From positions 4,081 through 68,080 of the forward strand of contig CAZCNN010000002.1 in the NCBI GenBank assembly GCA_964500505.1: a stretch of 64,000 nucleotides of DNA, in the 5' to 3' direction. Below are positions 5,670 to 26,165 of this stretch, piece by piece. Below the pieces are notes generated by a model. That model saw only the letters and a list, made by a program, of their open reading frames with translations, searched no databases and was not told the origin of the DNA. Position 1 is the first letter of the stretch. Each line of letters opens with the position of its first letter. This DNA is from an uncultured Bdellovibrionales bacterium. GTDB taxonomy: Bacteria > Patescibacteriota > Minisyncoccia > Moranbacterales > UBA1568. The translations under genes and the position numbers were made by a program.

Positions 5670-7793
5670 ATGCAGCAGTATAACAACAATGGAGGAGGCA
5701 ATCGGTCCACACGACCGATGGATGTCTCTCCCCACGGAAGCCAGCCTTCACGTGGTCAACTCGCGAGAAAACCAGCTCCTGTGCTCGGTGTTCCCAAAAC
5801 AAGCGGTATTGGTGCCTTTGAGGGCATCGTCGCTCGTGAGCAGGCACCCAAGGGTACTCCTCGGGGTCCTCTCGGTGGCAAACCCGCTCCGCGTCCGTTT
5901 GTCAAAAAGACGGAGGTAAAAGTAGGGGGCGCACCAGTCGTGGCTGGGAGCAAGTCCGAATCACAGAATCGTACCCACGCTCCACGCCAGGGTGGCGCCA
6001 AAGGAGGACAGCGTGGTGGAGCGCGCGGGGGCCGTGGTGGCAACCGTCGTTTTCAGCAGACCATGCCGAACCGGCTCGAGCCGAAGAAGATAGGCCCAGC
6101 GATCCCGACTATCCCCGAGAAGACACTTCGGATCATTCCACTTGGTGGCCAGGAAGAAGTCGGTCGCAACATGACTGTCTTTGAGTATGGCAACGACATC
6201 GTCATCATCGACATGGGCGTCCAATTCCCCGAAGAGGACATGCCCGGCATCGACTATATCGTGCCAAACGTGAGCTATCTCAAGGGCAAAGAAAAAAATA
6301 TCCGTGGTGTGCTCTTTACTCATGGTCACCTCGACCATATCGGGGCCGCTCCGATACTCTTGAAGCAACTGAATTACCCGACCATTATCGGTCGTGATTT
6401 TACCCTCGCCCTCATCAAACACAAGGTGGAAGACCAGGAAAAGGGTGCAGCCAGCCGTCTCAAGACGGTGCGCGTCAAGTCCCTCGAAGATCGGATCAAG
6501 CTCGGCGTATTCGAGGTCCGTTTCTTTGAAGTGGAGCACTCGATTATGGATGCCATGGGCATCGCGCTCGTGACGCCGAACGGCTCTATTATCCACCTTG
6601 GTGACTGGATGATTAGTAACGAGCCAGTCGAACCAAACGACGTCTCCTACAATCATCTCGAGTCACTCCCACAGCCGACCTTTCTCATGCTCGAGAGCCT
6701 CGGAGCGACCAAGAAGGGGATGCCACCATCAGAGACCGAAGTCCATACCAACCTCCAGAACCTCATCCGGACGGCACCAGGGCGGATCATCATAGGGACC
6801 TTTGCCTCGCAGGTACGTCGTATTGCATACCTCATCGAGTACGCGGAGAAGCAGGGGAAGCGAGTGGCTCTTGAGGGCTACAGCATGAAGATGAACATCG
6901 AAGTAGCCAAAGAACTCGGCTACATCAAGGTGAAGAAGGAGACTCTTATCACCGTAAACGACATCCACAAGTATCCCGACAACCAAATCGTGGTCATCTG
7001 TACCGGTGCTCAGGGCGAGCAAAACGCCGCTCTCTCGCGCATCGTGACCGACAACCACCGGTTCATCAAACTCCAGAAGAACGACACCATCGTCTTTTCG
7101 AGTTCGGTCATCCCCGGGAACGAGCGCAGTATTCAGCGTCTCAAAGACAACCTCTATCGGAAGTGTGACAACGTGATTCATAGTGATATCATGGAGATCC
7201 ACGTCGGTGGTCACGGCACCATCTGGGAAATCGAGGAAATCATCCGTCAGGTCAAAGCGACGTATATCCTCCCAGTCTATGCCAACCACTACTTTATCAA
7301 GGAAGCGGCCAAAATTGCCTATCGCCTGGGATATCCCGATAAGAACGTCTTTGTGATGGACAATGGTCACGTCCTCGAAGTGCCCGCGAAAGACGAGGGC
7401 TTCCCGCATCTCATCGCTGAAAAGGCTGACTCAAGCTATGTCTTTATCGATGGTCTCGGCGTCGGTGATATCGGCCACGTCGTCCTCCGTGATCGTCAGA
7501 TGCTCGCTCAGGATGGGATGGTGGTCGTCACTGTCGTCATCGACAGCAAATCCAAGAAAATTATCGGTACCGTCCAGGTCACCTCACGGGGCTTTATCCA
7601 CGTCAAAGAGAATTTTGACCTGGTGAATGAAGCCAAGCGCAAGGTAGAAAAGGTGGTCAAAGACACGACTTCCAAAGAAACTTCGATTGACTGGGATATG
7701 GTCCGGAATCAAATCCGCGAAGTCCTCGGCCAGTTCCTCTTTACCAAGACGGAGCGCCGTCCGATGATCTTGCCAGTCGTGATTGAAGTGTAA
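5670..7793 (+). CDS. rnj: ribonuclease J (beta-CASP metallo-beta-lactamase RNase) with ~160-aa Arg/Gly-rich N-terminal extension
   Basis: HGHLDHIG metal-binding motif, beta-CASP and C-terminal domains. The canonical RNase J N-terminus (LRIIPLGGQEEVGRNM) begins ~aa 160. Alternative internal starts exist (M17, M132), so the extension is uncertain. Confidence 0.9.
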   Translation: MQQYNNNGGGNRSTRPMDVSPHGSQPSRGQLARKPAPVLGVPKTSGIGAFEGIVAREQAPKGTPRGPLGGKPAPRPFVKKTEVKVGGAPVVAGSKSESQNRTHAPRQGGAKGGQRGGARGGRGGNRRFQQTMPNRLEPKKIGPAIPTIPEKTLRIIPLGGQEEVGRNMTVFEYGNDIVIIDMGVQFPEEDMPGIDYIVPNVSYLKGKEKNIRGVLFTHGHLDHIGAAPILLKQLNYPTIIGRDFTLALIKHKVEDQEKGAASRLKTVRVKSLEDRIKLGVFEVRFFEVEHSIMDAMGIALVTPNGSIIHLGDWMISNEPVEPNDVSYNHLESLPQPTFLMLESLGATKKGMPPSETEVHTNLQNLIRTAPGRIIIGTFASQVRRIAYLIEYAEKQGKRVALEGYSMKMNIEVAKELGYIKVKKETLITVNDIHKYPDNQIVVICTGAQGEQNAALSRIVTDNHRFIKLQKNDTIVFSSSVIPGNERSIQRLKDNLYRKCDNVIHSDIMEIHVGGHGTIWEIEEIIRQVKATYILPVYANHYFIKEAAKIAYRLGYPDKNVFVMDNGHVLEVPAKDEGFPHLIAEKADSSYVFIDGLGVGDIGHVVLRDRQMLAQDGMVVVTVVIDSKSKKIIGTVQVTSRGFIHVKENFDLVNEAKRKVEKVVKDTTSKETSIDWDMVRNQIREVLGQFLFTKTERRPMILPVVIEV

Positions 7794-7833
7794 TTGCCGA
7801 TGAATTATGAATTCTGAAGCATGAATCTTGAGA

Positions 7834-7860
7834 AAAAGCTCCCTTCGGGGAGCTTTTTTC
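7834..7860. terminator. bidirectional rho-independent terminator (GCTCCC-TTCG-GGGAGC flanked by A-run and T-run)
   Basis: Perfect 6-bp GC-rich stem with tetraloop; TTTTTT follows on the + strand and AAAAA precedes it. Lies 40 nt after the RNase J stop. Confidence 0.7.
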
Positions 7861-8040
7861 GAAAACTCCCCACTCCACAAGTAACTTTTTGTCTCTGTTT
7901 CGGACTCAGAAAGGCTCTGGATAAGCAGAAAAAGTCGCCCCCATAGAACGGCGGGCCACAGCTCTTTTTCTGAATCCAGAGCCATTCTTCAGACAACGAA
8001 ACAGTAGCCAAAAAATTCTTGCGAGCAGGGAGTTTTTTGT
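7861..8040 (+). ncRNA. candidate structured ncRNA (6S-like architecture: closing stem, internal bubble, long terminal hairpin, T-run)
   Basis: AAAACTCCC (~7862) pairs with GGGAGTTTT (~8030), followed by TTTTTT. Inner long imperfect hairpin ~7888-7997 (CTGTTTCG/CGAAACAG, CTCTGGAT/ATCCAGAG, CAGAAAAAG/CTTTTTCTG). Unpaired ~20-nt segments on both sides lie between the outer and inner stems. Only spurious antisense ORFs cover the region. Confidence 0.25.
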
Positions 8041-8102
8041 TTCTCTCTCGTTGGAGGGCAAGTATGCTACAATAGAGCTGTTAACCGTTCGAATACACAT
8101 CT

Positions 8103-9083
8103 ATGAAACGGCTTTTTTCGGGCATCCAACCATCGGGCAATCTCCACCTCGGGAACTATCTCGGCGCCATCAAGCAGTGGGTGGACATGCAAAACGACCA
8201 CGAGGCGATATTTTGTATCGTGGATTTGCACGCCATCACTGTAGCCCAGGACCCCGTGGCACTGCGTGCCAAGACCCTGGAGATTGCCAAGATTTATCTC
8301 GCTTCTGGTATCGACCCTGAGAAATCCACACTTTTCATCCAGTCCCACATCCCAGCCCACACCGAGCTCGGGTGGATACTGAATACCATCGCTCGAATGG
8401 CCGAGCTCGAGCGGATGACCCAGTTCAAGGACAAGGCGCAAAAGGGTGGTGCGAGCGAGTCAGGCGTCGGACTTTTTGCTTATCCAGTCCTGATGGCCGC
8501 AGATATTCTCCTCTATGATACCCATGTGGTACCGGTGGGGGATGACCAGATGCAGCATATTGAATTAGCCCGTGATTTAGCCGAGCGCTTCAATAAACGA
8601 TTTGGTGAAACCTTTGTGGTACCAGAGGGCCGGGTGACCAAAGAAGGGGCGCGTATCATGGGACTCGACGACCCGAGCAAAAAAATGTCCAAGTCCGCTC
8701 CGAGCGAGTACAACTATATCGCGCTCACCGATGATGCTGATACCGTGAGACGCAAGATCAAGAAGGCGGTGACGGATTCAGGAAGTGAGATTGTGTATTC
8801 TGATGAGAAACCCGCACTCAAAAACCTCATTAACATCTACACGCTCCTCTCAGGGAAAACCCCACAGGAGATAGAAGCTCTGTATGTGGGCCGAGGGTAT
8901 GGTGATTTCAAGACCGACCTGGCCGAAGTCGTCGTGGGATTCCTCGCTCCCTTTCAGGAGCGCCTCTTGGCCCTCTCTGATGATGATGTCCTCACGATCC
9001 TCCGCGCTGGCGCCAACAAAGTGCGTCCACTGGCCGAGGACAAACTCCGCCAGGTATACGACAAAATGGGTCTGATTGCCTAA
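8103..9083 (+). CDS. trpS: tryptophan--tRNA ligase
   Basis: Class I aaRS motifs: GIQPSGNLHLGNYLGA (HIGH-type) and KMSKS. TrpS-length (326 aa). Putative extended -10 TGcTACAAT ~8063-8075. Confidence 0.95.
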   Translation: MKRLFSGIQPSGNLHLGNYLGAIKQWVDMQNDHEAIFCIVDLHAITVAQDPVALRAKTLEIAKIYLASGIDPEKSTLFIQSHIPAHTELGWILNTIARMAELERMTQFKDKAQKGGASESGVGLFAYPVLMAADILLYDTHVVPVGDDQMQHIELARDLAERFNKRFGETFVVPEGRVTKEGARIMGLDDPSKKMSKSAPSEYNYIALTDDADTVRRKIKKAVTDSGSEIVYSDEKPALKNLINIYTLLSGKTPQEIEALYVGRGYGDFKTDLAEVVVGFLAPFQERLLALSDDDVLTILRAGANKVRPLAEDKLRQVYDKMGLIA

Positions 9084-9094
9084 CACGTTCCGGT

Positions 9095-13767: not shown

Positions 13768-14046
13768 CCATCGGCCAACGCGCCAACAGCCCCCTCGTTT
13801 CACGACGAGCGGGGCTTTTTCTTTGACCAAAATGCTATTTTCTGAAAGAATGAAGAACATTCAAGAAATACTCTATGAGCCTCAAAGTTGGTACAGTATG
13901 GACTCTACCAGACATGATTCGAGTGATAGCTCGGTGAAATCAATCCCGTTTTCTTTCGTGATAAAGCTACCGCCTCCACTACAAAGGGGAGTAGACTATG
14001 GCTTCAAGCCATCAAAAAAGACTCCATAATCTCATTGGGATTTTCT

Positions 14047-14496
14047 ATGTACACATCGGAAGAAATTGACTATGAATTAGACGATACCTGCCTTATCGTT
14101 CCCGAACATGCAAGAACTCCTTTAGTAAAGGCTCTATCTTATCTACCAGAAGAGATTATTGATTTTGTGGTTGAAAATTGTGTCTTTGTTTCTCTAGATA
14201 AGGAAACCAGAGGAATGTACATGACAATCAATGATTTTCGTCTTGAAAGTAAGACGGGTTTCATTTTCTTCCCTGCCGAGCTCTGGTCCAAGGATGAAGA
14301 AGCCATAGCGTTTGTAGTGGCTCATGAGGTCGCTCATGCGTATAAAGGACATGGGTTTAAAAGTTTCGAAGACACGGAGGCTACTATTAATGGCAGCAGA
14401 GAAAAAGATGCGGACAAGCAGGCTATTGAATGGCTGAAGCCACATTTCAAGGGATCATTCGAGAAGTACATCTATAAGGACTGGCAATTGTCATAA
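14047..14496 (+). CDS. small HExxH protein (putative zinc metallopeptidase, ImmA/IrrE-like size)
   Basis: AHEVAHAYKGH motif. The ORF track starts at a TTG at 14035; the first ATG is 14047. Confidence 0.45.
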   Translation: MYTSEEIDYELDDTCLIVPEHARTPLVKALSYLPEEIIDFVVENCVFVSLDKETRGMYMTINDFRLESKTGFIFFPAELWSKDEEAIAFVVAHEVAHAYKGHGFKSFEDTEATINGSREKDADKQAIEWLKPHFKGSFEKYIYKDWQLS

Positions 14497-14603
14497 GATT
14501 TATCTAGGTTCATATAGTGGTGGAGTATAACCGTACCGTCAAAGGTGCGGCTTTATTTTTTGTCCCAAATAGTGTAAAGTTGTGTTAAGTTGGTAACTTT
14601 CAT

Positions 14604-14792
14604 ATGACTGAACAGAAAAAGGACGAAATCATCACTTTGGCCGAAGCCTCTGAAATTCTAGGCTTCCATCCCAATACACTCCGTAAATGGGACAACACGG
14701 GATTCTTGAAGGCAATTCGGTTTGGTAGGAGAGGGGATAGGCGATATCGGAAAAGTGATATTTTGAAGCTTCTTGATCAAAAGATGAAATAA
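14604..14792 (+). CDS. MerR/excisionase-family helix-turn-helix DNA-binding protein
   Basis: 62 aa. LAEASEILGFHPNTLRKWDNTGFL resembles the Xis/MerR-type HTH. Stops 12 nt before the next gene. Confidence 0.55.
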   Translation: MTEQKKDEIITLAEASEILGFHPNTLRKWDNTGFLKAIRFGRRGDRRYRKSDILKLLDQKMK

Positions 14793-14804: not shown

Positions 14805-16928
14805 ATGGCAAAGATATCTAAGCTGTTGGATGCGATTAAAGACAAGGAGATTGTTGTTCCTGAATTCCAGAGAGAGTATGTATGGAGTTTGGAGCAGGCG
14901 AAAGAGCTCATGGCATCCTTGTTTCAGGAATATCCCACAGGAAGCATTTTGATCTGGGAAACAACGACTCCTCCAGAAATCAAAAATGATGCAGTCAAGA
15001 AAGATAAGATGGGTTGGATCAAAGTACTTCTTGATGGACAGCAGCGTCTGACGACTCTCTATCTCCTCATAAAAGGGGATATACCGCCGTACTACAAAGA
15101 ATCTGAGATCACTCATGATCCACGGCATCTGTTTTTTAATCTGAGAACAGCGGAGTTTAATTACTACCAGAAGCAGAAAATGGAGGAGAGCCCTTTCTGG
15201 AAATCGGTCGTGAGCTGCTTTAATGATAAGTTTGATGCCTTTACTCTGGTCGAAGGCCTGCATGTAGAGGATGCTAGGGAAAAACTGGAAATCGGAAGCA
15301 TTGTAAATAAGAATCTTGTCCGATTGCGGGCAATAGCGGATATCGACTATTTTGAACAGTCGGTTCCGCAGGGGCTAGATATTGATAAGGCCATCGATAT
15401 ATTCGACCGGGTTAACTCGATGGGGACGAAGCTTACGGAAGCGGAACTGGTCCTGACACATGTTGCTGGGAGATGGCCACAAGCTCGCCGGGTCATGAAA
15501 GAGAAAATAGATGCCTATGAGAAAGCCGGGTTCTCCTTTGAGTTGGAATTCCTGACCCGTTGCTTTGTTGTGCTTCTCACGAACTCGGCTCTGTACGAAA
15601 AAATGACAGATGAAATTTATAAGAATACGACGGAGGAAATTTACAAGGAGACATGGGAAAAACTGGTGAAGATACTTGACTATATCATTCCTATTCTCAA
15701 GCAGTCTGCCTATATCAGTGGGAGTCGTGATATGAACACGAATAATGTTCTTGTTCCGCTGATTGCTTATTTGTCCAAGAACGGCGGGATCTTTAGCCCT
15801 GAGCTCAAAAATCAATTTTTGCGCTGGATGTTTCTCGCTCTTATCTGGGGTCGGTACAGCGGTCAGACTGATCAGCGTTTGGATAAGGATGTTTATCTGG
15901 CAATCAGTAGTCCACAGCCGGTGTCGGATCTCATCAATGAGATTGAGGACTTGCGAGGAAGGATAGAAATTAAGCCAGCCGATCTCGAAGGCCGTGGCTC
16001 AAGCCATCCGCTCCACCGTATGCTCTATGTGCTGGCGAAATACAACAAAGCGACAGATTGGGCGAATGGCGGTTCGCTACAAGATACAATGGGTGATTAC
16101 TATAGCATCCAGAGTCACCATGTTTTTCCACAAGCATTTTTGTACAAGAACGGATACGACTCAGAAAATCACTTAGACAAGAAAAAGGTGAATGAGATTG
16201 CCAATCGAGCATTCATTACACGAGATACGAATTTTGATATCTCAGACAAACAGCCTGTCGATTATCTGGAAGAAGTTTCTGCGAAATACCCTGAGGCGCT
16301 TGGTCAACAGTTGATACCGACAGAAAAGTCTTTGTGGGAAGTTGGAAAATACAATGAATTTTTGACTGCCCGAAGAAAAATGATTGCGGATTCGGTTAAT
16401 GCCTTTTTAGATCACCTGAAAGGAGTGGAGACTGAAGAGGTGGTTAATTACGAGGAGGACATCAAGGCGGGAGAGAGCGACTACCTTGAATTCAAGTCCT
16501 CGCTTCGTTGGGATTATGAGCAGGGGACAACGAACAAGCTGATGGAGTATGTTGTTGCTAAGACGATAGCGGCATTCATGAATTCCGAGGGCGGGAAGCT
16601 CTTTATCGGAGTGAATGATGCCGGGAAGGTTCTGGGTATTGAAAAGGATTACGAGACATTGAAAAACAAGAATCGAGACAGTTTCTTGCTCCAGCTGACT
16701 CAGGTGATCAATAATTATCTGGGCAGGGAGTTTAATCAGTATGTTGGAATAAAAATTGATCAGGTGGGTGGTAAAGATATATGCATTGTCGATGTGGCCA
16801 ATAGTGCAATGCCGGTGTATCTGAAAAATAATGACAAGGAAGAGTTTTATATCCGAGCGTCCGCTTCCTCGCAGCCGATGAGTATTAGAGAGGCCAATGA
16901 GTATATTCGAACACGCTGGGAGAGCTAG
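14805..16928 (+). CDS. GmrSD-like type IV restriction/defence protein: DUF262 (ParB-like NTPase) + DUF1524 (His-Me/HNH nuclease) fused to C-terminal AlbA_2/Schlafen-like domain
   Basis: DUF262 motifs PEFQREYVW and DGQQRLTT. DUF1524 motif IQSHHVFPQAF. C-terminal ~150 aa (ESDYLEFKSSL...AFMNSEGGKLFIGVNDAGKVLGI) matches the AlbA_2/Schlafen 'putative DNA-binding' domain. Confidence 0.75.
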   Translation: MAKISKLLDAIKDKEIVVPEFQREYVWSLEQAKELMASLFQEYPTGSILIWETTTPPEIKNDAVKKDKMGWIKVLLDGQQRLTTLYLLIKGDIPPYYKESEITHDPRHLFFNLRTAEFNYYQKQKMEESPFWKSVVSCFNDKFDAFTLVEGLHVEDAREKLEIGSIVNKNLVRLRAIADIDYFEQSVPQGLDIDKAIDIFDRVNSMGTKLTEAELVLTHVAGRWPQARRVMKEKIDAYEKAGFSFELEFLTRCFVVLLTNSALYEKMTDEIYKNTTEEIYKETWEKLVKILDYIIPILKQSAYISGSRDMNTNNVLVPLIAYLSKNGGIFSPELKNQFLRWMFLALIWGRYSGQTDQRLDKDVYLAISSPQPVSDLINEIEDLRGRIEIKPADLEGRGSSHPLHRMLYVLAKYNKATDWANGGSLQDTMGDYYSIQSHHVFPQAFLYKNGYDSENHLDKKKVNEIANRAFITRDTNFDISDKQPVDYLEEVSAKYPEALGQQLIPTEKSLWEVGKYNEFLTARRKMIADSVNAFLDHLKGVETEEVVNYEEDIKAGESDYLEFKSSLRWDYEQGTTNKLMEYVVAKTIAAFMNSEGGKLFIGVNDAGKVLGIEKDYETLKNKNRDSFLLQLTQVINNYLGREFNQYVGIKIDQVGGKDICIVDVANSAMPVYLKNNDKEEFYIRASASSQPMSIREANEYIRTRWES

Positions 16929-16943
16929 CACGAGTGAAATTCC

Positions 16944-18521
16944 TTGAGCAAAAAAGAAATAATTATGGCCACCAAGAAAGTCCAAAGTGAAAAATCGCTC
17001 GAGAAGTGGATCTGGGATGCCGCCTGCGCCATCCGGGGTTCAAAAGATGCCAGCAAATTTAAGGACTATATCCTCCCGCTTATCTTCGTGAAGCGGCTCT
17101 GTGATGTCTTTGATGATGAACTTCGGACCAAGATCAAGGCGGCAACGCTCTCTGATGGGAGGAAAAAAGCCAAGCTCGACAACAGCCGGGTGCGTTTCTA
17201 TATTCCTATCACTCCGAAGAATCCAGAGGACGATACTTGGAGTGCAATCAGGTCGCTCTCAAGCAATATTGGTCAGGAGCTCACTCGGATCATCCGGGAA
17301 GTGGCAGCGAGCAACCCCTTGCTCGATGATGTCATTACGAGGGTGGACTACAATGCGACGACCCGGGGAGAGCGAGAAATTGACGACCATCAGCTCTCCA
17401 ACTTGATCGAAGCAGTGAGCCAGAAGCGGCTCGGTTTGAATGATGTCGATCCGGATATCATCGGGCGAGCGTATGAATACCTCATCCGAAAGTTTGCGGA
17501 GAATTCCGGTAAATCCGGGGGCGAGTTCTTCACTCCGCCAGAAGTCGGACAAATCATGGCTCGGATTATGAACCCGGAGCCAGGGATGCATATCTATGAC
17601 CCGACTTGTGGCTCGGCAGGACTCCTCATCAAGTGCGAGTCGGTGTTGAATGACAGAATGCAGAGTGAGGGGAAAAAGGTGTTTACCCCACTTAGTCTCT
17701 ATGGTCAGGAAAAGGAGACGGACAACTGGGCGATGGCCAAGATGAACATGATAATCCATGACATGGAGGGTGATATAGAGACAGGTGACACCTTCAATAA
17801 TCCGAAATTCAAGGATGCAACAGGGCACGGCGTGCGGAAGTTTGATCGGGCGGTAGCTAATCCGATGTGGAATCAACCTGATTTTCGAGAGGAAGTTTAT
17901 ACCGATGATGCTTACCATCGTTTTCCGGCAGGGAATCCTGGCGGTAAAGCGGACTGGGGCTGGGTGCAGCATATCTTCTCAAGTCTAAAAGACGATGGTC
18001 GGGCGGCTGTGGTTCTCGATACGGGTGCTGTTTCTCGGGGAAGTGGAAGTGCTAATACTGACAAAGAGAAAGAGGTTCGGAAATGGTTTATTGAGCACGA
18101 CTTGATCGAGGGTGTTTTATATCTACCAGAGAACTTGTTTTACAACACAACTGCGCCGGGGATCATTCTCTTTCTGAACAAGCAGAAACCCGAAAAGCTC
18201 AAAGACAAGTTACTCCTCATTAATGCCAGTCATGAATTCGAGAAGGGCAATCCAAAGAATTACATTAGCTCGGAGCAGGCACAGAAGATCGCTGATGCTT
18301 TCAATGCAAAAAAAGTGGTAGAGAATTTCAGTGTGTTCGTTTCGAAGTCGGACATAGTGAAAAATGACTACAACATTTCGCCGTCGAGGTATATCCATCT
18401 CGGCGGAGTAGAGGAGTATGTGCCAGTGGAAGATATCTTGAGTGATCTAGTCGAAGTTGAGACTAAGGCAAAAGAAGTGGATAAGAATCTCCAAAAGGTG
18501 CTAAAAGAGCTTGGATTCTAG
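16944..18521 (+). CDS. hsdM: type I restriction-modification system methyltransferase subunit (HsdM, N6-adenine MTase)
   Basis: HsdM N-terminal domain. SAM motif I DPTCGSAGLL. Catalytic motif NPMW (an NPPF variant). The ORF-track start is non-ATG; the first ATG is +21 nt (16965). Confidence 0.9.
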   Translation: MSKKEIIMATKKVQSEKSLEKWIWDAACAIRGSKDASKFKDYILPLIFVKRLCDVFDDELRTKIKAATLSDGRKKAKLDNSRVRFYIPITPKNPEDDTWSAIRSLSSNIGQELTRIIREVAASNPLLDDVITRVDYNATTRGEREIDDHQLSNLIEAVSQKRLGLNDVDPDIIGRAYEYLIRKFAENSGKSGGEFFTPPEVGQIMARIMNPEPGMHIYDPTCGSAGLLIKCESVLNDRMQSEGKKVFTPLSLYGQEKETDNWAMAKMNMIIHDMEGDIETGDTFNNPKFKDATGHGVRKFDRAVANPMWNQPDFREEVYTDDAYHRFPAGNPGGKADWGWVQHIFSSLKDDGRAAVVLDTGAVSRGSGSANTDKEKEVRKWFIEHDLIEGVLYLPENLFYNTTAPGIILFLNKQKPEKLKDKLLLINASHEFEKGNPKNYISSEQAQKIADAFNAKKVVENFSVFVSKSDIVKNDYNISPSRYIHLGGVEEYVPVEDILSDLVEVETKAKEVDKNLQKVLKELGF

Positions 18522-19725
18522 TATGGCAACACGAGTCTCTACAAAGGAATGGAGAAAAACAAGATTGGTAGATGCTTGTGATTTGAACATGGGCCAATCT
18601 CCAGATTCAAAAACATACAATAACACTGGCGAGGGACTACCATTTTTTCAAGGGAAAACAGACTTCGGTCGAAGGCATCCGAGTGTTCGAATATATTGCA
18701 GTGACCCGAAAAAAGTCGTTGATGTGGGCGACATCTTAATTTCTGTACGTGCACCTGTAGGGCCAGTAAACATTGCAGATGCAAAAAGTTGTATTGGCAG
18801 AGGTCTTGCCGGGTTAAGGTCCAAGAATGAAGTACTGGATCAAGATTTTCTGTATTTTGAACTTTTGTTGAACGAAAAAAGCATTGCCTCTCTTGGTTCC
18901 GGAAGTACTTTCCATGCAATCAACAAATCACAATTGGCGGATCTCGAGTTTGATCTCCCGTCATTACCAGAACAAAAGGCCATTGCACGAGTGCTGACAA
19001 CTGTGCAGGATGCGATTGCTGAGCAGGAAAATCTCATTGCAAAGCTCAAGGAGTTGAAGCGGAGCATGATGCAGCATCTGTTTACTCACGGCACTCAAGG
19101 CGAAGTGACCAAAATGACTGAGATAGGGGAGATTCCAGAGAGTTGGGCAATCGAGAAGTTGGGCGATATCTGCGAGACAAGTAGCGGTGGTACTCCGAGT
19201 AGGACTAAAAAGGAATACTACTCAGGACATATCCTATGGGTAAAGTCTGGTGAAATGAACGATGGCTATATTTCTGATTCGGAGGAGAAAATAACTAGAG
19301 AGGCAGTAGAAAATTCATCGGCGAAATTGTTTGAGTCGGGTACTTTATTGATAGCAATGTATGGGGCAACCGCTGGAAAAACAGCAATTATTAGCCGGGA
19401 GGCAACGACGAATCAGGCTGTTTGTGGAATTTTTAAGAACAGTAGGGTAGATCTTGAATTTATTCGTTACGCCTTGATTTTGAGAAGAGGGTTTCTATTG
19501 GATCAGCGGCATGGTGGTGCTCAGCCGAACTTGAGCCAGACTAGTATTAGAAATCTCTACATACCATTACCAAAAATTGAGGAGCAGGAAAAAATCTCCA
19601 ACAGTCTCATTGCAATAGAGAAGAAGATCGTGTCGACACGGGTCAAGCTGGCGTCGTATCAAAGCCTTTTTAAAACACTACTTCATGAGTTGATGAGTGG
19701 AGAAGTGAGAATAAAAAATATATGA
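18511..19725 (+). CDS. hsdS: type I restriction-modification system specificity subunit (HsdS)
   Basis: Two target-recognition domains separated by the conserved central helix LPSLPEQKAIARVLTTVQDAIAEQENLIAKLKELKRSMMQHLFTHG, with a similar C-terminal conserved region. Overlaps hsdM by 11 nt. Confidence 0.85.
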   Translation: MDSSMATRVSTKEWRKTRLVDACDLNMGQSPDSKTYNNTGEGLPFFQGKTDFGRRHPSVRIYCSDPKKVVDVGDILISVRAPVGPVNIADAKSCIGRGLAGLRSKNEVLDQDFLYFELLLNEKSIASLGSGSTFHAINKSQLADLEFDLPSLPEQKAIARVLTTVQDAIAEQENLIAKLKELKRSMMQHLFTHGTQGEVTKMTEIGEIPESWAIEKLGDICETSSGGTPSRTKKEYYSGHILWVKSGEMNDGYISDSEEKITREAVENSSAKLFESGTLLIAMYGATAGKTAIISREATTNQAVCGIFKNSRVDLEFIRYALILRRGFLLDQRHGGAQPNLSQTSIRNLYIPLPKIEEQEKISNSLIAIEKKIVSTRVKLASYQSLFKTLLHELMSGEVRIKNI

Positions 19726-22601
19726 TCAATCCATACCTAAAAGGATCAATATGGCGAAAATGGGACCTGCAAACGCAGACCATTTTGGACGATAGCTATA
19801 TCTCTCTTTCCGAATATAGTGCTGAAATAAAGAAGACGAACCTTGCTGAGTGGCAACGGTATGTTGCCAAAGTTGGAGGCGAAGCCAACGCACTGCTCTA
19901 TGACTCAAAAGCATATTTTAATGACACGAGGATCGCAAAGAGTGATAGATGCGTAAATTATGTAAGGAATTACTTCGCTTTTCTCGAAGTGTTCAACCCT
20001 GATTTGGAGTGTGTGGGAATCACAGATCACAATTATTTTGACGACACCTTACTGGATACTTTCATTGAGTATTCACAACAATCAAAGTGTAGAATCATAC
20101 CGGGGGTAGAGATCAACTGTCAGGGTATTCACATGCTTCTGTTCTTTCCAAACAAGTTATATGGAAAGTCGACCTTCTCAGCTGGCATCCATGCATTTTT
20201 AATGAAGTTTAATATTGATAATCGAACGACTGATGCTGGAGTTCTCACTACTACATCACGAGACATCAAAGAGATTCTTGATGAGGTGAAAAAGAATGGT
20301 GGCATCGTTATATACCCTCACTGCAATAGCAGTAATGGACTCTTTCAAGAAAGAACAGCTAGTGATCGTACATATCTTGCGGACATTTTTAACCATCAGA
20401 AGGTGAACCTCCTGCAATCACAACACAACCAGTCGTCTGTGATATTGAGTGATTACATAAAAACAAATGCATCACTGACTGCAAAGTTCTGTTCGCATAT
20501 CAGCTCTGACGCCCGATCTCTGCGGGACTATGGACGCAGTGATCAAGACAATAACTTTTTATGGATTAAAGCGGATCCAACTTTTGAGGGATTGCGACAG
20601 ATTATTTATGAGCCAGAGCAACGCATCTTTGTTGGCCCACAGAAACCGGAAGAAAAGAAGTCATACTTCGTGATCGATAAGGTTCGCTTCATTGATAACT
20701 CTAGTGATGCAAAATTCACTAGTGATCAAATAGAGGTCAATCAGAATCTGACCACAATCATTGGTGGCAAATCGACTGGTAAATCGCTTCTGCTCTACTA
20801 CATGGCAAAAACGATTGATGGTCAGGAGGTCAAAAATAGGACAACTGATGCAGGCGTATCAATCAAGTATGACTTCGATACATCACCAGACTTCAACTTT
20901 GAGGTACTGTGGAAAGATGGTCAAAAGACACTATTGAAAGTGCCAGAAGGAACAAACGAAGAGGGGTCGAAAGAGCGTAAAATACTATACATACCGCAAA
21001 AGTATCTCAATACTCTCTCTGAAGCAAACATAGCAAGCCGTGAAGCTCTCAACGAGTTTGTTTTGGGCGTCATACTACAAGATGCAACTATTAGGGAAAA
21101 ATATGATGAAACTCTTCAAGAAATAAAAACCAAGACTAAGTCTGTGCCGAATGAGATCAATGAGCTTTTTTCTGACTTGGCGGATATCAAGAAAACTGAG
21201 GAGGAGCTGAAGCAGGCTGGTGATGAGAAAGGTATTGAGAGTTACATAGAGACTCTTCAAAAACGGGCAGACGACATCAAGGCGAAGTCTGGATTGACCG
21301 AGGATCAGATTAATCAATTCGAGGAATTGGTAACAAAGGAAAAAGAGATAAGTACACAGATCTCGAATCTTGAAGAAGACAAGAAAACCATAAAGAACCT
21401 CAATGTCAGTCTAGCTTCTCAAGTAGAAGGCCTTCGTACCACGACCGAAGAGTATGAGGCATACCTCAATGACGCTGACATCAAAACGAAATTTAAAACA
21501 GAGCTGAAAATCATTGACTCTTTTGTGCCAAATATTAAAACTGGTACAACAAATCTCATTACGGTTATAGATGCAAGAATTAAAGTTCACAACTTGGAGT
21601 TGGTAACAATCAAGGCAGGACTTGTACCATTACTGGCGAAAGTGCAAATGCAGACAGAGTTACAGGCACAAACAGATGCAATTAAAAAGGAACAGCAGAA
21701 GTTGAACGAGATAGCACTCAAAGCAAACAATCTCAAGACCAAGAAGGCCTCCTACAAAAAGAAGGCGGACGGAGTCATGGATTCATATAGCCAAATCATT
21801 GCGAAGTACGAGGGCTTAAGGAATGAGTTCAAGAAGTTTGAAAGCAAGTTTGGAGACATAACACTTGGAGTCCATGTCAGTTTTAATGACGATGCTTTTA
21901 ATGCAGAAGTGGTCAAGGAATATATCAACAAAAACGACCTAAAACGAGTGATAGTAGAGGCCGAGTGGGGCGATGAGTTTGTGTATCAATACGATCCGGT
22001 TAAACACTCGGCAAATATTACGACCGTATTCGAAGGTCTTATTGGTGGCACGATCAACACAGTCAAGAATCGTCAGCCCAAAGATGCGGTGGCGAAATTA
22101 CTAGAGAATTACTTCTTTCTCGATTTCCATATCTTCTACAAAAACGACTCGCTAGACAAGATGTCGCCCGGCAAAAAAGGATTGGTACTACTTCAGTTGC
22201 TAATAAACTTGAGCGATGAGGAGTGGCCTATTCTACTTGATCAACCAGAGGATGATCTTGATAACCGCTCGGTATACGACGACCTTGTGGACTTCCTAAA
22301 AAAGAAGAAGTTACAGAGGCAAATAATCATTGTTACCCATAATCCAAACCTTGTTGTTGGCGCTGACGCAGAAGAAACTATCGTTGCAAATCAATCAGGA
22401 CAAGAGGTGGGCAGAGAGAATAAGAAGTTTCGTTTTGAATATGTTACCGGAGCTCTAGAGAATACGTTTGAGGTTGATGTGACAGTCGAGCCAGCAATCC
22501 TGTACCGTAAAGGCATTCGCCAGCATGTTTGTGAGATACTCGAGGGTGGTAAAGAAGCGTTTCAAAAGCGTGAGCAAAAGTATAGTTTTCCACAAGAATA
22601 A
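19722..22601 (+). CDS. PHP-family phosphoesterase domain fused to SMC/Rad50/RecN-like ABC ATPase with long coiled coil (putative defence effector embedded in the type I R-M operon)
   Basis: N-terminal ~300 aa carry PHP-like metal-ligand blocks (GITDHNYFDD, PGVEIN, IHMLLF, IVIYPHC). Walker A IIGGKSTGKS at ~aa 345. About 450 aa of K/E-rich heptad-like sequence follow. Then the ABC signature MSPGKKGLVLLQLL, Walker B ILLDQPEDDLD and H-loop IIIVTHNP. Starts with ATGA overlapping the hsdS stop and ends 8 nt before hsdR. Confidence 0.6.
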   Translation: MINPYLKGSIWRKWDLQTQTILDDSYISLSEYSAEIKKTNLAEWQRYVAKVGGEANALLYDSKAYFNDTRIAKSDRCVNYVRNYFAFLEVFNPDLECVGITDHNYFDDTLLDTFIEYSQQSKCRIIPGVEINCQGIHMLLFFPNKLYGKSTFSAGIHAFLMKFNIDNRTTDAGVLTTTSRDIKEILDEVKKNGGIVIYPHCNSSNGLFQERTASDRTYLADIFNHQKVNLLQSQHNQSSVILSDYIKTNASLTAKFCSHISSDARSLRDYGRSDQDNNFLWIKADPTFEGLRQIIYEPEQRIFVGPQKPEEKKSYFVIDKVRFIDNSSDAKFTSDQIEVNQNLTTIIGGKSTGKSLLLYYMAKTIDGQEVKNRTTDAGVSIKYDFDTSPDFNFEVLWKDGQKTLLKVPEGTNEEGSKERKILYIPQKYLNTLSEANIASREALNEFVLGVILQDATIREKYDETLQEIKTKTKSVPNEINELFSDLADIKKTEEELKQAGDEKGIESYIETLQKRADDIKAKSGLTEDQINQFEELVTKEKEISTQISNLEEDKKTIKNLNVSLASQVEGLRTTTEEYEAYLNDADIKTKFKTELKIIDSFVPNIKTGTTNLITVIDARIKVHNLELVTIKAGLVPLLAKVQMQTELQAQTDAIKKEQQKLNEIALKANNLKTKKASYKKKADGVMDSYSQIIAKYEGLRNEFKKFESKFGDITLGVHVSFNDDAFNAEVVKEYINKNDLKRVIVEAEWGDEFVYQYDPVKHSANITTVFEGLIGGTINTVKNRQPKDAVAKLLENYFFLDFHIFYKNDSLDKMSPGKKGLVLLQLLINLSDEEWPILLDQPEDDLDNRSVYDDLVDFLKKKKLQRQIIIVTHNPNLVVGADAEETIVANQSGQEVGRENKKFRFEYVTGALENTFEVDVTVEPAILYRKGIRQHVCEILEGGKEAFQKREQKYSFPQE

Positions 22602-22609
22602 GTAATCCT

Positions 22610-25486
22610 ATGAAACCATCCGAAGCAAAATCAGTACAAGAGCGAATTATTAAGTATGCGGTCGAGTCCGGGTGGGCACTGGTTTCTCGTGCCGAAAGCG
22701 ACGCCCGCCGTGGTGATGAAATGGTATACAATGGCCAGCCCTACTATTCGGATGTGCTGATGCCAAAACTGCGAGAATTCAACCCATGGCTCCCGGCAGA
22801 CTATAGTGTTCCGACACCGGTCTCAAAGATAGAAGGAAATCGGCAGATACTACTCGCTCTCCGCGGACAGAGTACAGCCTATGATGAGGCAGAAAAACGA
22901 GAGCGCAATGTGAAAGTGATCGATTTTAAGCGCCTGGAGCGCAATGTCTATGAAGTAACGAGCGAGTTTGCTTTCTCGAATGGCCGATACAGTAATCGGC
23001 AGGATATCGTTTTCATGATCAATGGAGTGCCGATTATCGATCTGGAATGCAAGAACCTGACCACAGCGGAAGGGATTGATAAGGCACTGGATCAGATACG
23101 AAGGTATCATCGTGAGACGCCAGAGCTCTTGGTCCTTGAGCAGGGCTATGTTGCTAGTGAGGGGATGCGGCTTGAGTATGGCGTGACTTGGAATACGGTG
23201 AGGCGCAATATCTTCAAGTGGAATGGCGATAAGGTAGGGGAGCTCGAGAACAAGATTAAGACTTTTTTCGATATCAAGCACATTCTCAATTTGGTGGAGA
23301 AATATATCATGTTCATCGAGAAGGATGAAGAATTGACCAAGCTCGTCCTACGGGAGCATCAGGCGAATGCGGTGGAGGCGGTGTTGACCCGGGCATTGAA
23401 AGAAGATGCAACGAGAGGATTGGTCTGGCATACACAGGGCTCAGGGAAGACTTTTACCATGATCAAGACAGCCGAGCTCTTGTTCAAGAGTGATGAGGCA
23501 GACAAGCCGACGGTCATCATGATGCTCGATAGGAATGAGCTCGAGGGACAGATGGAGGGGAATTTGATGGCTGCCGGACTCTCGAATGTCCGAAAGGCGC
23601 TGAGTATTACGGACCTGGTAGAAATACTCCGTTCAGACTATCGGGGTATCGTCATTACCATGATCCATAAATTCCGTGGATTGCCGGCCGATTTGAACAC
23701 CCGAAAGAATATCTTTGTCTTGATTGATGAGGCGCATCGTTCAACTGGGAGCGACCTTGGGACATTTGTAATGGCAGCTATGCCGAATGCGACCTTTGTT
23801 GGGTATACCGGAACGCCGATTGATAAAGCGCAGTACGGCAAGGGGACATTCAAGACTTTTGGAGTGGATGATGCCAAAGGGTATCTGCATAAATACAGTA
23901 TTAGTGAGAGTATCGCTGACGGCACAACATTACCGCTCTACTATAGCTTGGCACCCAATGAGATGCTTGTACCCAAAGAAACGCTTGAAAGGGAGTTTCT
24001 AAACCTCGCCGAGGAGCATGGAGTGACGGATATCGAAGAGTTGAATGCAATTCTCGAGCGAGCGGTGAATACCCGGAACTTTCTCAAGGGTGCCGGACGC
24101 ATCGAAAAGGTAGGTAAGTTTATCGCTGAACACTTCAAGGAATATATCGAGCCGATGAACTATAAGGCATTTGTCGTCGCTGTCGATCGTGAAGCGTGTG
24201 CCTTGTACAAAAAGGAACTAGACAAGTATCTGCCGAAGGCATGGAGCGAGGTGGTCTACACGAGCAATAATAACGATACCGAACTCTTGAAGGAGTTTGA
24301 CCATGATGAGGAGATCGAGAAGAAGATCCGGCGAGACTTCGCCCGATTTGGCGGCACGCCAAAAATCCTTATCGTGACTGAAAAGCTCCTGACGGGTTAT
24401 GATGCACCGATCCTGTACTGCATGTATCTGGATAAGCCGATGCGTGACCATGCATTGCTCCAGACTATCGCTCGAGTGAATCGTCCGTATGAGAATGAAG
24501 AGATGAAAATGATGAAGCCTCACGGTTTTGTGCTCGACTTTGTGGGAATATTCGACAAGCTCGAAAAAGCGCTGTCGTTTGATAGTGATGAAGTGAATGC
24601 CATCGTCAAAGACTTGTCGCTTTTGAAAGAGCGGTTTGTGAAGAAACTAACTGAAGAGGCAAAGCCGTATTCGGATCTCCTTGTTGGTCCGTTTGATGAC
24701 CGGCTCGCAGGGGTCTTGATTGAGCATTTCCGGGATGAAGAAGTGAGGAAAGCATTCTTCAAACTCTACAACGAGATTGAGATGTTCTATGAGATCATTT
24801 CTCCGGATGCGTTCTTACGACCCTATGTGGATCAGTACATGACTCTTTCAAGCGCCTATCAAGTGGTACGAAATGCCTATGCCGACCATGTCTCTATCGA
24901 CCGAGAGTTTCAAAAGAAGACAGCGGCACTGGTGCAGGAACATATTCAGAGTAGTCCGATCAAATTGGGTACGGAGATAGTCCGACTTGATGAGAAGGGG
25001 ATCGCACTGATCAAAGAAAAGAATCAGCCGGATGAGGTGAAGATTATCAACCTGATCAAGAGTATTCAGCGATTGGCTGAGGAGAAGTCCAATGACCCAG
25101 TGCTCATTTCGGTCAAAGAGCGGGCTGAGGATATCTTGGATGCGTACTCAAGCCGACAGATGACCACGCAGGAAGCCTTGAAACAGTTGCTTGCTTTGGC
25201 TGAAGGCGAGGCGGAGCGGAGTGCGGAACAGGAGAAAGAGGGTATTTCTTCGGTAGCTTGGTTTATCCGGGATTTACTGGCGGAGAGCAAGATTATCGAT
25301 ATGCAAGTGGTAAAAGAGCTTGAAACGATAATCGGGCAGTATCCAGAGTTTGCCAAGAGCGAGAAGCTGACTCGTGATCTTCGAAATCATATCTATAGAG
25401 GTCTTGGCGCACTTGATCTTACTCCCACGGAGGAGAAAAGAATAACTGATCAGTTGCTCGAGACTCTCGTGCGAACAAGTCTATGA
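22610..25486 (+). CDS. hsdR: type I restriction enzyme endonuclease/helicase subunit (HsdR)
   Basis: SF2 helicase motifs HTQGSGKTFTM (I) and DEAHRS (II). N-terminal nuclease domain and the characteristic ~950-aa length. Confidence 0.9.
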   Translation: MKPSEAKSVQERIIKYAVESGWALVSRAESDARRGDEMVYNGQPYYSDVLMPKLREFNPWLPADYSVPTPVSKIEGNRQILLALRGQSTAYDEAEKRERNVKVIDFKRLERNVYEVTSEFAFSNGRYSNRQDIVFMINGVPIIDLECKNLTTAEGIDKALDQIRRYHRETPELLVLEQGYVASEGMRLEYGVTWNTVRRNIFKWNGDKVGELENKIKTFFDIKHILNLVEKYIMFIEKDEELTKLVLREHQANAVEAVLTRALKEDATRGLVWHTQGSGKTFTMIKTAELLFKSDEADKPTVIMMLDRNELEGQMEGNLMAAGLSNVRKALSITDLVEILRSDYRGIVITMIHKFRGLPADLNTRKNIFVLIDEAHRSTGSDLGTFVMAAMPNATFVGYTGTPIDKAQYGKGTFKTFGVDDAKGYLHKYSISESIADGTTLPLYYSLAPNEMLVPKETLEREFLNLAEEHGVTDIEELNAILERAVNTRNFLKGAGRIEKVGKFIAEHFKEYIEPMNYKAFVVAVDREACALYKKELDKYLPKAWSEVVYTSNNNDTELLKEFDHDEEIEKKIRRDFARFGGTPKILIVTEKLLTGYDAPILYCMYLDKPMRDHALLQTIARVNRPYENEEMKMMKPHGFVLDFVGIFDKLEKALSFDSDEVNAIVKDLSLLKERFVKKLTEEAKPYSDLLVGPFDDRLAGVLIEHFRDEEVRKAFFKLYNEIEMFYEIISPDAFLRPYVDQYMTLSSAYQVVRNAYADHVSIDREFQKKTAALVQEHIQSSPIKLGTEIVRLDEKGIALIKEKNQPDEVKIINLIKSIQRLAEEKSNDPVLISVKERAEDILDAYSSRQMTTQEALKQLLALAEGEAERSAEQEKEGISSVAWFIRDLLAESKIIDMQVVKELETIIGQYPEFAKSEKLTRDLRNHIYRGLGALDLTPTEEKRITDQLLETLVRTSL

Positions 25487-25812
25487 AAAGAAAAACAGTA
25501 AAAACATGGGAGTCGAAGAAGGAATTTAAGGAGGAGGTATATCTGTGCGCCAATAAAATCAAAGTGAAACTGAAGCAGGTGACACTCCGGCTGATGACTC
25601 GAAAGTGGGCGAGCTGTTCGACTAATGGCTATTTTACTTTCAACACCGAACTCTTGGGTATGGATCGTTCGCTGGGTGAGTATGTGATCATGCATGAGCT
25701 CCTTCATTACCATGTCCCGAACCATGGAAAGCTTTGGAAGAGTCTAATGATGGTACATATGCCGGACCATGAGAAGAGGGCACAGAAGCTGAAAGTCATG
25801 CATAGTAGATAG
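25483..25812 (+). CDS. DUF45/YgjP/WLM-type zinc metallohydrolase commonly linked to type I R-M hsdR
   Basis: HELLHYHVPNHGKLW is the HExxH...H motif of the M48/YgjP family. Start overlaps the hsdR stop by 4 nt. Confidence 0.7.
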   Translation: MKRKTVKTWESKKEFKEEVYLCANKIKVKLKQVTLRLMTRKWASCSTNGYFTFNTELLGMDRSLGEYVIMHELLHYHVPNHGKLWKSLMMVHMPDHEKRAQKLKVMHSR

Positions 25813-26165
25813 AATGCTTTATCTAAGCCACAAGACTGGATTTTTCAGTGAAAATTTGATAATATGTAGAGGTGAGAACAATTTGAAAAAGTAGCCTAAA
25901 CCAGTAGCGATACTGGCATGGTGAAAAAGTCCAGTTAGACATAAAGATCCCATCGTATGGGGTGTCTAACTGGCCGTATCGGGAAACTGGTACGAGGAGC
26001 TTCGGCTTCTACCTATGCGGTGGGTTTTTTGCATTTATTTTTACAAAACTATGAAAGAAGATTTTTTTAATCCATTCGCCATGATATTTGGAGGGATACC
26101 GATTTCACTCGGTATATACGGTCTAATGACAAACGGCGAACAATGGTTCTCCTATATTCTGATTT

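Follow-up and report, generated by a model that had tools for sequence, protein, structure and literature searches.

What is a gene that joins a PHP (polymerase/histidinol-phosphatase) domain to a Rad50-like ATPase doing between two subunit genes of a type I restriction-modification (R-M) system? The question is raised by a 64,000-nt stretch of contig CAZCNN010000002.1 (the window), in which a 959-aa open reading frame (ORF) lies between hsdS and hsdR. An earlier note on this DNA had regarded the encoded fusion as unlike any characterised defence system. We found instead that the protein passes the NCBIfam cutoff for the TrlF family, and that Ppl, a characterised anti-phage protein, is a homologue with the same architecture. 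A survey of gene neighbourhoods, which the note had proposed, showed that relatives recur in or beside R-M operons, type I included.

Assignment to the TrlF family and homology to Ppl

The gene in question is the following.

19722..22601 (+), trlF-family gene, 959 aa; ORF with ATG start; PHP domain and Rad50/SMC-like ATP-binding cassette (ABC) ATPase with coiled-coil insert

The 959-aa ORF, its ATGA overlap with hsdS and its position 8 nt before hsdR were all present as the earlier note had described them. Both junctions were read directly. The trlF start overlaps the hsdS stop as ATGA, and the letters around this overlap of the hsdS TGA and the trlF ATG are …AATATATGATCAAT…; the 8-nt spacer GTAATCCT separates the trlF TAA from the hsdR ATG at 22610. 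The eight motifs quoted in the note, from GITDHN to VTHNP, were all located at their expected positions.

Against the NCBIfam model NF045780 (TrlF_fam_ATP, "TrlF family AAA-like ATPase") the protein scored 481.7 bits, with a curated equivalog cutoff of 350 (E 7.3e-144), and the match spanned residues 89-954 and profile positions 37-943 of 944. The NCBIfam Ppl model NF042955 was matched below threshold (105.3 bits, cutoff 1000), and a weaker sub-threshold NCBIfam match was obtained for the Spaf_1101 family. The best PADLOC match was Ppl (E 1e-15), in the C-terminal part only. Sequence and profile searches of the PDB matched no PHP or Ppl structure.

The E. coli Ppl sequence used for comparison was taken from plasmid pEC14III (locus L041). 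BLASTP aligned it with the window protein in the PHP part (E 2e-8) and in the ATPase C-lobe (E 2e-18), and the Walker B/D-loop LLDQPEDDLD is identical in the two proteins. As determined with hhalign, the TrlF family profile matched Ppl with 99.5% probability over residues 7-363, and W-D-L-Q-T-Q-T of the window protein was paired with F-D-F-H-N-H-T of Ppl. By these sequence comparisons the window gene is assigned to the TrlF family, and its product is a homologue of the anti-phage protein Ppl along its length.

The name TrlF derives from the temperature-restriction locus (TRL) trlR-trlF-trlG of Photorhabdus laumondii (Hapeshi et al. 2020, PMC7554251), and trlRFG stops growth of Photorhabdus at 36 C (PMC7554251). 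Ppl is a validated single-gene anti-phage defence (PMC11482910), counted among the ABC-ATPase defences in bioRxiv 10.1101/2024.01.29.577857. It is described as a 3'-5' single-stranded DNA exonuclease; nucleoside triphosphates (NTPs) bound at both the PHP and the NTPase domains inhibit Ppl and 3'-OH DNA ends activate it (PMC12904381).

The PHP domain and its metal ligands

Three features were mapped in the N-terminal part.

19722..20636 (+), PHP domain, residues 1-305; confident predicted fold
19770..19778 (+), Q17-T-Q19, at the site of canonical PHP motif I (HxH); aligns with HNH of Ppl
20508..20516 (+), D263-A-R265, at the site of the last PHP motif (DxH); metal-binding His changed to Arg

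A Pfam scan of the window protein gave no PHP match, and the PHP fold therefore had to be established by structure prediction. An AlphaFold2 (AF2) model of the full protein was made from an 87-sequence alignment, with a mean pLDDT (predicted local distance difference test) of 82.3. Structure comparison of the PHP domain gave values of 15.7 for the PHP endonuclease PfuEndoQ, 13.9 for PsfC, 13.5 for the PHP phosphoesterase TM0559, 10-12 for Pol III alpha PHP domains, 10.9 for RNase AM, 7.6 for YcdX and 7.2 for Pol X. In the predicted model the N-terminal 305 residues were confirmed as a PHP fold, in agreement with the earlier note. The domain bears a helical insert of approximately 50-70 residues after strand 1, which is missing in a second TrlF clade (alignment A1).

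The supposition that the PHP metal ligands are intact held only in part. The four PHP motifs listed in the note are present (GITDHN at residues 99-104, PGVEIN at 127-132, IHMLLF at 136-141, IVIYPHC at 195-201), but HxH is Q17-T-Q19 and DxH is D263-A-R265, and 6 of the 9 canonical ligands are kept (replaced: H→Q, H→Q and H→R). The ligand set of the window protein is Q17, Q19, D24, H103, E130, H137, H200, D263 and R265. Q17-T-Q19 aligns with HxH of most other TrlF subfamilies, and Q/Q at motif I is kept in the window clade (39 of 87 sequences in alignment A3; 33 loci). At position 265, 51 of the 87 sequences have R, 33 have H and 3 have K. Among these close relatives only E130 and D263 are invariant PHP ligands.

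Written in order, the nine ligands are Q,Q,D,H,E,H,H,D,R in the window clade, H,H,D,H,E,H,H,D,H in Ppl, and Q,H,D,Y,E,Q/N,G,D,H in the second large TrlF clade. Two ligand classes were seen in alignment A3 (L001-L125). One keeps H103, H137 and H200, often with Q at HxH and R or K at the last His; the other has Y103, N/Q137 and G/A/V200 and keeps the second HxH His and the DxH His. The complete set of nine ligands was seen in a few sequences only, one of them Ppl. The substitutions suggest remodelled metal sites rather than decay, because they are clade-specific and conserved. The active centre of the window clade is possibly binuclear, with the Arg replacing the third metal.

The ABC ATPase head, coiled coil and tail

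The remaining part of the protein contains the following features.

20763..20786 (+), Walker A GGKSTGKS, residues 348-355; K354 and S355 invariant in 87 sequences
21030..21833 (+), antiparallel coiled coil, residues 437-704, apex near Y581-LND; AF2 helices
22161..22346 (+), MSPGKKG (814-820), LLDQPEDDLD (838-847) and VTHNP (871-875); ABC signature, Walker B/D-loop and H-loop
22395..22598 (+), conserved C-terminal tail (…RQHVCEILEGGKEAFQKREQKY); family conservation; aligns with the Ppl C-terminus

The Pfam scan gave SMC_N and AAA_21 matches, both sub-threshold. Foldseek comparison with the PDB returned the heads with coiled coils of MukB, Smc, JetC, Rad50, LmuB, RecN and RecF, and the top matches (Rad50/SMC-like ATPases, JetC and LmuB) had E values of 2e-10 to 2e-6. 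The SbcC/Rad50-like ATPase with coiled coil that the earlier note had recognised was thus confirmed, on the predicted model, as a Rad50/SMC-like ABC ATPase. Its coiled coil had been overestimated. The note gave approximately 450 aa, and in the AF2 model the coiled coil comprises approximately 270 aa, about 130 residues per arm (helices 437-451, 455-499, 502-522, 527-581, 585-639 and 644-704); the rest of the interval from Walker A to the signature belongs to the globular head. No Cys is present within residues 437-704, and the coiled coil therefore has no zinc hook. The tail (residues 891-959) was modelled with low confidence, with ten-residue pLDDT block means of 44-60.

The 87 close relatives show no variation in Walker A, Q-loop, signature, D-loop and H-loop, S815, D840, Q841, D847 and H873 included. 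In ABC ATPases the residue after the Walker B Asp is the catalytic Glu, and E→Q mutants bind ATP and hydrolyse it poorly; in other ABC ATPases the change favours stable nucleotide binding over fast hydrolysis. Gln841 (22242-22244) occupies this position in 87 of 87 close relatives, and DQPE[DG][DNS]LD was present in 12 of 12 TrlF-family sequences compared, Ppl among them. Judged by these residues, the TrlF/Ppl ABC head is a natural 'EQ' variant. Such a Gln would suit a nucleotide-sensing switch more than a motor.

Distribution and association with R-M genes

At 50% identity, the TrlF family comprised 1148 clusters when E<=1e-30 was required and 4091 at E<=1e-10. By tblastn, matches were found on 1064 plasmid records, the majority from conjugative plasmids of Klebsiella and E. 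coli, and among the matches listed the labels of the Prokaryotic Genome Annotation Pipeline (PGAP) were mostly TrlF and some Ppl. No TrlF relatives were detected in a viral contig collection with the patterns used.

To count neighbours, 36 genome and 79 metagenome loci were gathered. ORFs were called and neighbours labelled by a panel of R-M and other proteins, each panel member being verified with Pfam. TrlF genes were collapsed at 90% identity, which gave 72 non-redundant groups. The resulting fractions, which are lower bounds because unrecognised restriction enzymes were scored as unknown, are given by position relative to TrlF.

R-M gene at -1: 20/61 (33%), all co-oriented
R-M gene at -2: 17/51 (33%), 15 co-oriented
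R-M gene at -3: 6/41 (15%)
R-M gene at +1: 4/65 (6%)
R-M gene at +2: 4/51 (8%)
R-M gene five or more genes away: 3/234

Upstream positions were enriched relative to far ones (Fisher, p = 4e-16) and to downstream ones (p = 1e-7). The gap from TrlF to the R-M gene at -1 had a median of 4 nt and was <=30 nt in 37 of 43 cases. An apparent near-absence of R-M linkage, obtained by tblastn with the window Hsd queries only, was an artefact of divergent R-M families and was reversed by the wider panel and Pfam.

Partners of TrlF included type I systems, and an HsdR-like helicase with an M/S fusion protein was found in L007, L019 and L045. Type II partners were of CfrBI type, of MvaI/BcnI type, or an EcoRI-like methylase with a GmrSD_N/HNH protein. 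Type III Mod and Res genes were the partners in L053-L055, L065, L016 and L022, and type IIG/ISP enzymes in L029, L092 and L117. At other TrlF loci, serine recombinases, a reverse transcriptase, HerA, and Abi or Gabija-like genes lay nearby. The commonest placements of TrlF were at the end of an R-M operon, whatever its type, and on its own on plasmids. As far as we found, neither this association with the tail of R-M operons nor the natural diversity seen in the PHP metal centre has been described in the literature.

Two neighbouring genes are recorded separately. In L087/L089 a reverse-transcriptase gene (RVT_1, 319 aa; 5870-6829), which is not an R-M gene, lies 5' of TrlF in the same orientation; it may be a retron, DRT or Abi-type partner. 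In L001 a 564-aa frame at 7390-9084 (-) joins LexA DNA-binding, S24 peptidase and D12-class adenine methyltransferase domains, and could be a genuine fusion or two genes merged by ORF calling.

Embedding in type I operons

The hsd genes of the window are as follows.

16944..18521 (+), hsdM; N6_Mtase 1.4e-90, HsdM_N 1.1e-18
18511..19725 (+), hsdS; Methylase_S 1.6e-46
22610..25486 (+), hsdR; SWI2_SNF2 1e-57, HSDR_N 5.6e-22, ResIII and T1R_D3-like domains

From their domain matches, the genes flanking trlF were identified unambiguously as bona fide HsdM, HsdS and HsdR genes. The true start of hsdM is likely the ATG at 16965, to which the called gene in L037 maps. L037 is the one Logan contig on which a protein identical to the window TrlF was found, with unchanged gene order. 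Gene orders with TrlF among hsd genes were the following.

Window: hsdM-hsdS-TrlF-hsdR-ygjP
L006 and L061: gene order as in the window; TrlF 72%, HsdM 74% and HsdR 77% identical
L050 and L126: hsdM-TrlF-hsdS-x-Fic-hsdR
L114: hsdR-TrlF-hsdS-hsdM
K. pneumoniae plasmid (L042): hsdR-TrlF-TrlG-hsdS-AAA_13-hsdM

True embedding, with TrlF flanked by hsd genes on either side, recurs, has more than one origin and is found in a minority of loci. In L126, TrlF is 81% identical to that of the window, HsdM and HsdR are only 28% identical, and TrlF is inserted between hsdM and hsdS. A similar TrlF with divergent Hsd proteins and another insertion point indicates independent capture by unrelated type I operons. 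TrlF relatives at 80-83% identity follow type II R-M or other genes. Within the window, the G+C content at third codon positions is 0.44 in trlF and 0.41 in hsdS, versus 0.57 in hsdM and 0.56 in hsdR. This compositional step across 16944-25486 fits cassette exchange of trlF and of the target-recognition regions of hsdS. Rather than being a dedicated Hsd subunit, TrlF is an autonomous cassette, taken up by R-M operons time and again.

Other genes are embedded in the same way. A Fic/DOC protein gene (12721-13866 of L126/L127) lies between hsdS and hsdR, and a PrrC/RloC-type AAA_13 ATPase gene (8824-9939 of L042) lies between hsdS and hsdM.

Other genes of the block

Two further genes adjoin the hsd genes.

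14805..16928 (+), gene for a GmrSD_N and Schlafen/AlbA_2 protein; GmrSD_N 8.3e-31, SLFN_AlbA_2 5e-20; PADLOC HEC-05 6.6e-49
25483..25812 (+), YgjP-like metallopeptidase gene, 109 aa; PF01863 6.5e-23

The GmrSD_N-AlbA_2 gene is directly 5' of hsdM and may share a unit with the hsd genes. The AlbA_2 domain forms the C-terminal part of its product, and a GmrSD_C/HNH nuclease domain was not detected in this protein. The YgjP-like gene, the final gene of the unit, overlaps the hsdR stop by 4 nt and covers only profile positions 111-205 of PF01863, the C-terminal half. It is kept after hsdR in L006 at 75% identity.

Terminator-like hairpins flank the block at 14531-14550 upstream and 26008-26024 downstream; the promoter and terminator scans as a whole were not above chance, so that these hairpins are weak support for the operon limits. 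Precomputed Pfam results for the identical contig L037 gave, 5' of the block, a small ORF at 14035-14496 (+) with a weak Peptidase_U49 (Lit-like) match and a 62-aa HTH_17/MerR-type protein at 14604-14792 (+), which suggests a larger defence island. A 2061-aa ORF is present at 39109-45294 (+) of the window.

Comparison with known systems

The window protein resembles TrlF of Photorhabdus in having a PHP domain followed by an ABC head with coiled coil and DQPEDDLDN. Linkage to type I R-M genes is also shared with the family, as on the K. pneumoniae plasmid, and on the Yersinia ruckeri plasmid pYR3 type I methylase genes are interleaved with trl genes (PMC7554251). The window differs in having no TrlG-type gene and no trlR/trlG pair; the sole AlbA_2 domain nearby is fused to GmrSD_N. 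Most surveyed TrlF members are also without TrlG, and TrlG is therefore not a family-wide requirement. Motif I is QxQ in the window protein, whereas it is HxH in most TrlF subfamilies. Photorhabdus is a proteobacterium, and the host of the window, judged by the best relatives that carry a name, is probably of the Patescibacteria (Candidate Phyla Radiation, CPR) type.

Ppl has the same domain order, with homology across the PHP domain, linker, Walker A and ATPase C-lobe, and shares with the window protein LLDQPEDDLD and a C-terminal EGG..AF motif. Like the TrlF genes, ppl is plasmid- and island-borne. Identity to the window protein is only 22-28%, however, and Ppl has 9 PHP ligands where the window protein has six. 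In the single Ppl locus examined ppl stood alone, whereas the window gene is translationally coupled in a type I operon. The window clade also has the additional helical insert after PHP strand 1.

PrrC and RloC invite comparison since their ABC-type ATPase genes also occupy a slot between hsd genes. The earlier note had drawn this parallel; the position between hsd genes stands, but the analogy is loose, as TrlF is not specific to type I systems. A Rad50-like coiled coil is reported for RloC too (PMC3458546). The effector of the window protein is an N-terminal PHP domain, whereas theirs is a C-terminal anticodon nuclease, and the zinc hook is absent. Pfam, NCBIfam and PADLOC scans found neither an anticodon-nuclease (HEPN-like) domain in the window protein nor a match to the PrrC/RloC sequence families; its C-terminus consists of the ABC C-lobe and the conserved tail. 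PrrC/RloC membership was rejected for want of an anticodon-nuclease domain, and OLD/Gabija membership for want of a TOPRIM domain. Membership in the SbcC/RecN housekeeping family was considered and rejected as well.

With Rad50/SbcC, JetC (Wadjet) and LmuB (Lamassu) the window protein shares the head fold and an antiparallel coiled coil that splits the ABC head. Its PHP domain is covalently fused, unlike a separate Mre11/SbcD, TOPRIM or Cap4 effector, and domain scans and gene order revealed no Mre11/SbcD-like gene in the window operon. The coiled coil is short, with no hook or hinge, and Walker B is D840-Q841, the catalytic Glu being replaced. EndoQ and the PHP exonucleases of Pol X and Pol III alpha, together with RNase AM, are only 10-20% identical to the window PHP domain; the HxH and DxH histidines are replaced in the window protein and the domain is fused to an ABC ATPase.

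Proposed mechanism and alternative explanations

The reading we prefer, at about even odds, is that the window protein is a Ppl-like TrlF whose partner restriction enzyme supplies DNA ends that TrlF degrades ("cut, then shred"). It builds on the family membership, the two folds, the homology to Ppl and the operonic linkage to R-M genes. By analogy with Ppl and with Rad50-like anatomy, the head would dimerise on nucleotide and read the NTP state of the cell. If Ppl is a guide, the PHP domain would attack DNA from its ends when NTPs fall and free 3'-OH ends appear. In R-M-linked members, as the neighbourhood census suggests, the partner restriction enzyme would provide these ends on invading DNA. 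TrlF might then carry out post-cleavage degradation, or act as back-up where restriction is only partial. A broader proposal, which we hold to be rather unlikely, is that TrlF is a general R-M accessory, transcribed together with type I, II, III and IIG operons from a final or internal position, licensed by the 3'-OH ends that the partner restriction enzyme makes and gated by NTPs, which destroys cut DNA or the cell, and that the rebuilt Gln/Gln/Arg site of the Patescibacteria-type clade is still catalytic. On this proposal, R-M operons with TrlF would give two-stage "restrict, then shred" immunity.

Several points weigh against the "cut, then shred" reading. The nuclease activity of the window protein is uncertain, three PHP ligands being replaced; with three of nine ligands replaced in the window clade, the exonuclease chemistry of Ppl may not carry over. 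About half of the informative loci have no recognised R-M neighbour and many plasmid copies are alone, so any coupling to restriction would be facultative. The mechanism of Ppl itself is given here second-hand, through citing papers. The primary study is that of Xu et al. (Mol Cell 2026;86:180), as cited in PMC13434339. The only phenotype described for a TrlF is growth restriction in Photorhabdus, not phage defence (PMC7554251).

The strongest competitor, rather unlikely in our judgement, holds that TrlF is an autonomous, Ppl-like single-gene defence that uses R-M operons only for expression and mobilisation, with no interplay. Ppl functions as a single gene, near-identical TrlF genes occur in very different contexts, and many lone plasmid copies lie beside unrelated defence genes (a Gabija-like ATPase with UvrD, or Abi). 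Embedding of defence genes in type I R-M, BREX and DISARM systems has moreover been described as a general phenomenon (bioRxiv 10.1101/2024.01.29.577857). The directional bias of TrlF (co-oriented, at -1 or -2, with few-nt gaps) is nevertheless tighter than loose clustering in defence islands, and this strong linkage argues against mere co-location; 3'-OH ends, a product of R-M, are also the reported ligand of Ppl. An improbable alternative takes the PHP domain to be non-catalytic, so that TrlF would only sense nucleotides or DNA ends and act through an AlbA_2 partner, here the GmrSD_N-AlbA_2 protein. It would account for the three lost ligands and for the suppressors of Photorhabdus TRL toxicity, all of which lie in trlG (AlbA_2 and HATPase_c_4) and none in trlF (PMC7554251). 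AlbA_2 is also the N-terminal domain of TrlG in Photorhabdus and on the K. pneumoniae plasmid, TrlF-TrlG pairs recur (L094, L106, L118), with one inside the type I operon of that plasmid, and an AlbA_2 domain is encoded in the window operon too (14805-16928). When the upstream AlbA_2 was tested as a conserved TrlG-like partner, it was not recurrent among close relatives: AlbA_2 is not among the recurrent families of the 124 nearest neighbours. The window AlbA_2 resembles TrlG only weakly, over 72 aa (E 2e-6), and the protein is otherwise of HEC-05/GmrSD type. The PHP ligand pattern is uncorrelated with the presence of TrlG. Neither E130 nor D263 varies, and the Q/Q/R pattern shows conservation, not decay.

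Tight translational coupling on both sides, the PrrC-type slot and an ABC ATPase head like those of PrrC and RloC would also fit a guard, kept latent by Hsd contact and released by a phage anti-restriction protein to cause abortive infection; the K. pneumoniae plasmid operon even holds TrlF-TrlG and a PrrC/RloC-type AAA_13 ATPase between its hsd genes. We regard this as quite improbable. The same TrlF clade is joined to type II, type III, type IIG and unrelated type I families, and so varied a set of partners makes a protein latch to Hsd of the PrrC kind unlikely. Unlike TrlF, PrrC is found almost only within type I systems (bioRxiv 10.1101/2024.01.29.577857); the window protein, besides, has no HEPN/anticodon-nuclease domain. 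Least credible by far is a housekeeping SbcC/RecN-like repair paralogue that came into the hsd operon by chance. The head and coiled coil are indeed structurally similar to Rad50, RecN, RecF and SMC, and the earlier note had allowed that homologues might be such paralogues with no R-M association. The spread of the gene is, however, patchy and mobile, on conjugative plasmids, beside serine recombinases and in defence islands. No SbcD/Mre11 partner or zinc hook is present, Walker B has Gln, and the protein scores above cutoff for TrlF and for no repair family.

Significance

The reading of this locus is corrected by these results: it does not hold an unprecedented fusion, but a member of a large family already annotated on many clinical plasmids. 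The new quantitative point is that TrlF is the co-oriented gene right after an R-M gene in about one third of non-redundant loci, whatever the R-M type. The sensing of 3'-OH ends and NTP depletion by Ppl, taken together with the linkage to R-M, gives a testable model of restriction cooperating with an end-sensing nuclease. The natural variants of the PHP metal centre and the natural "EQ-like" ABC head are useful for mechanistic work.

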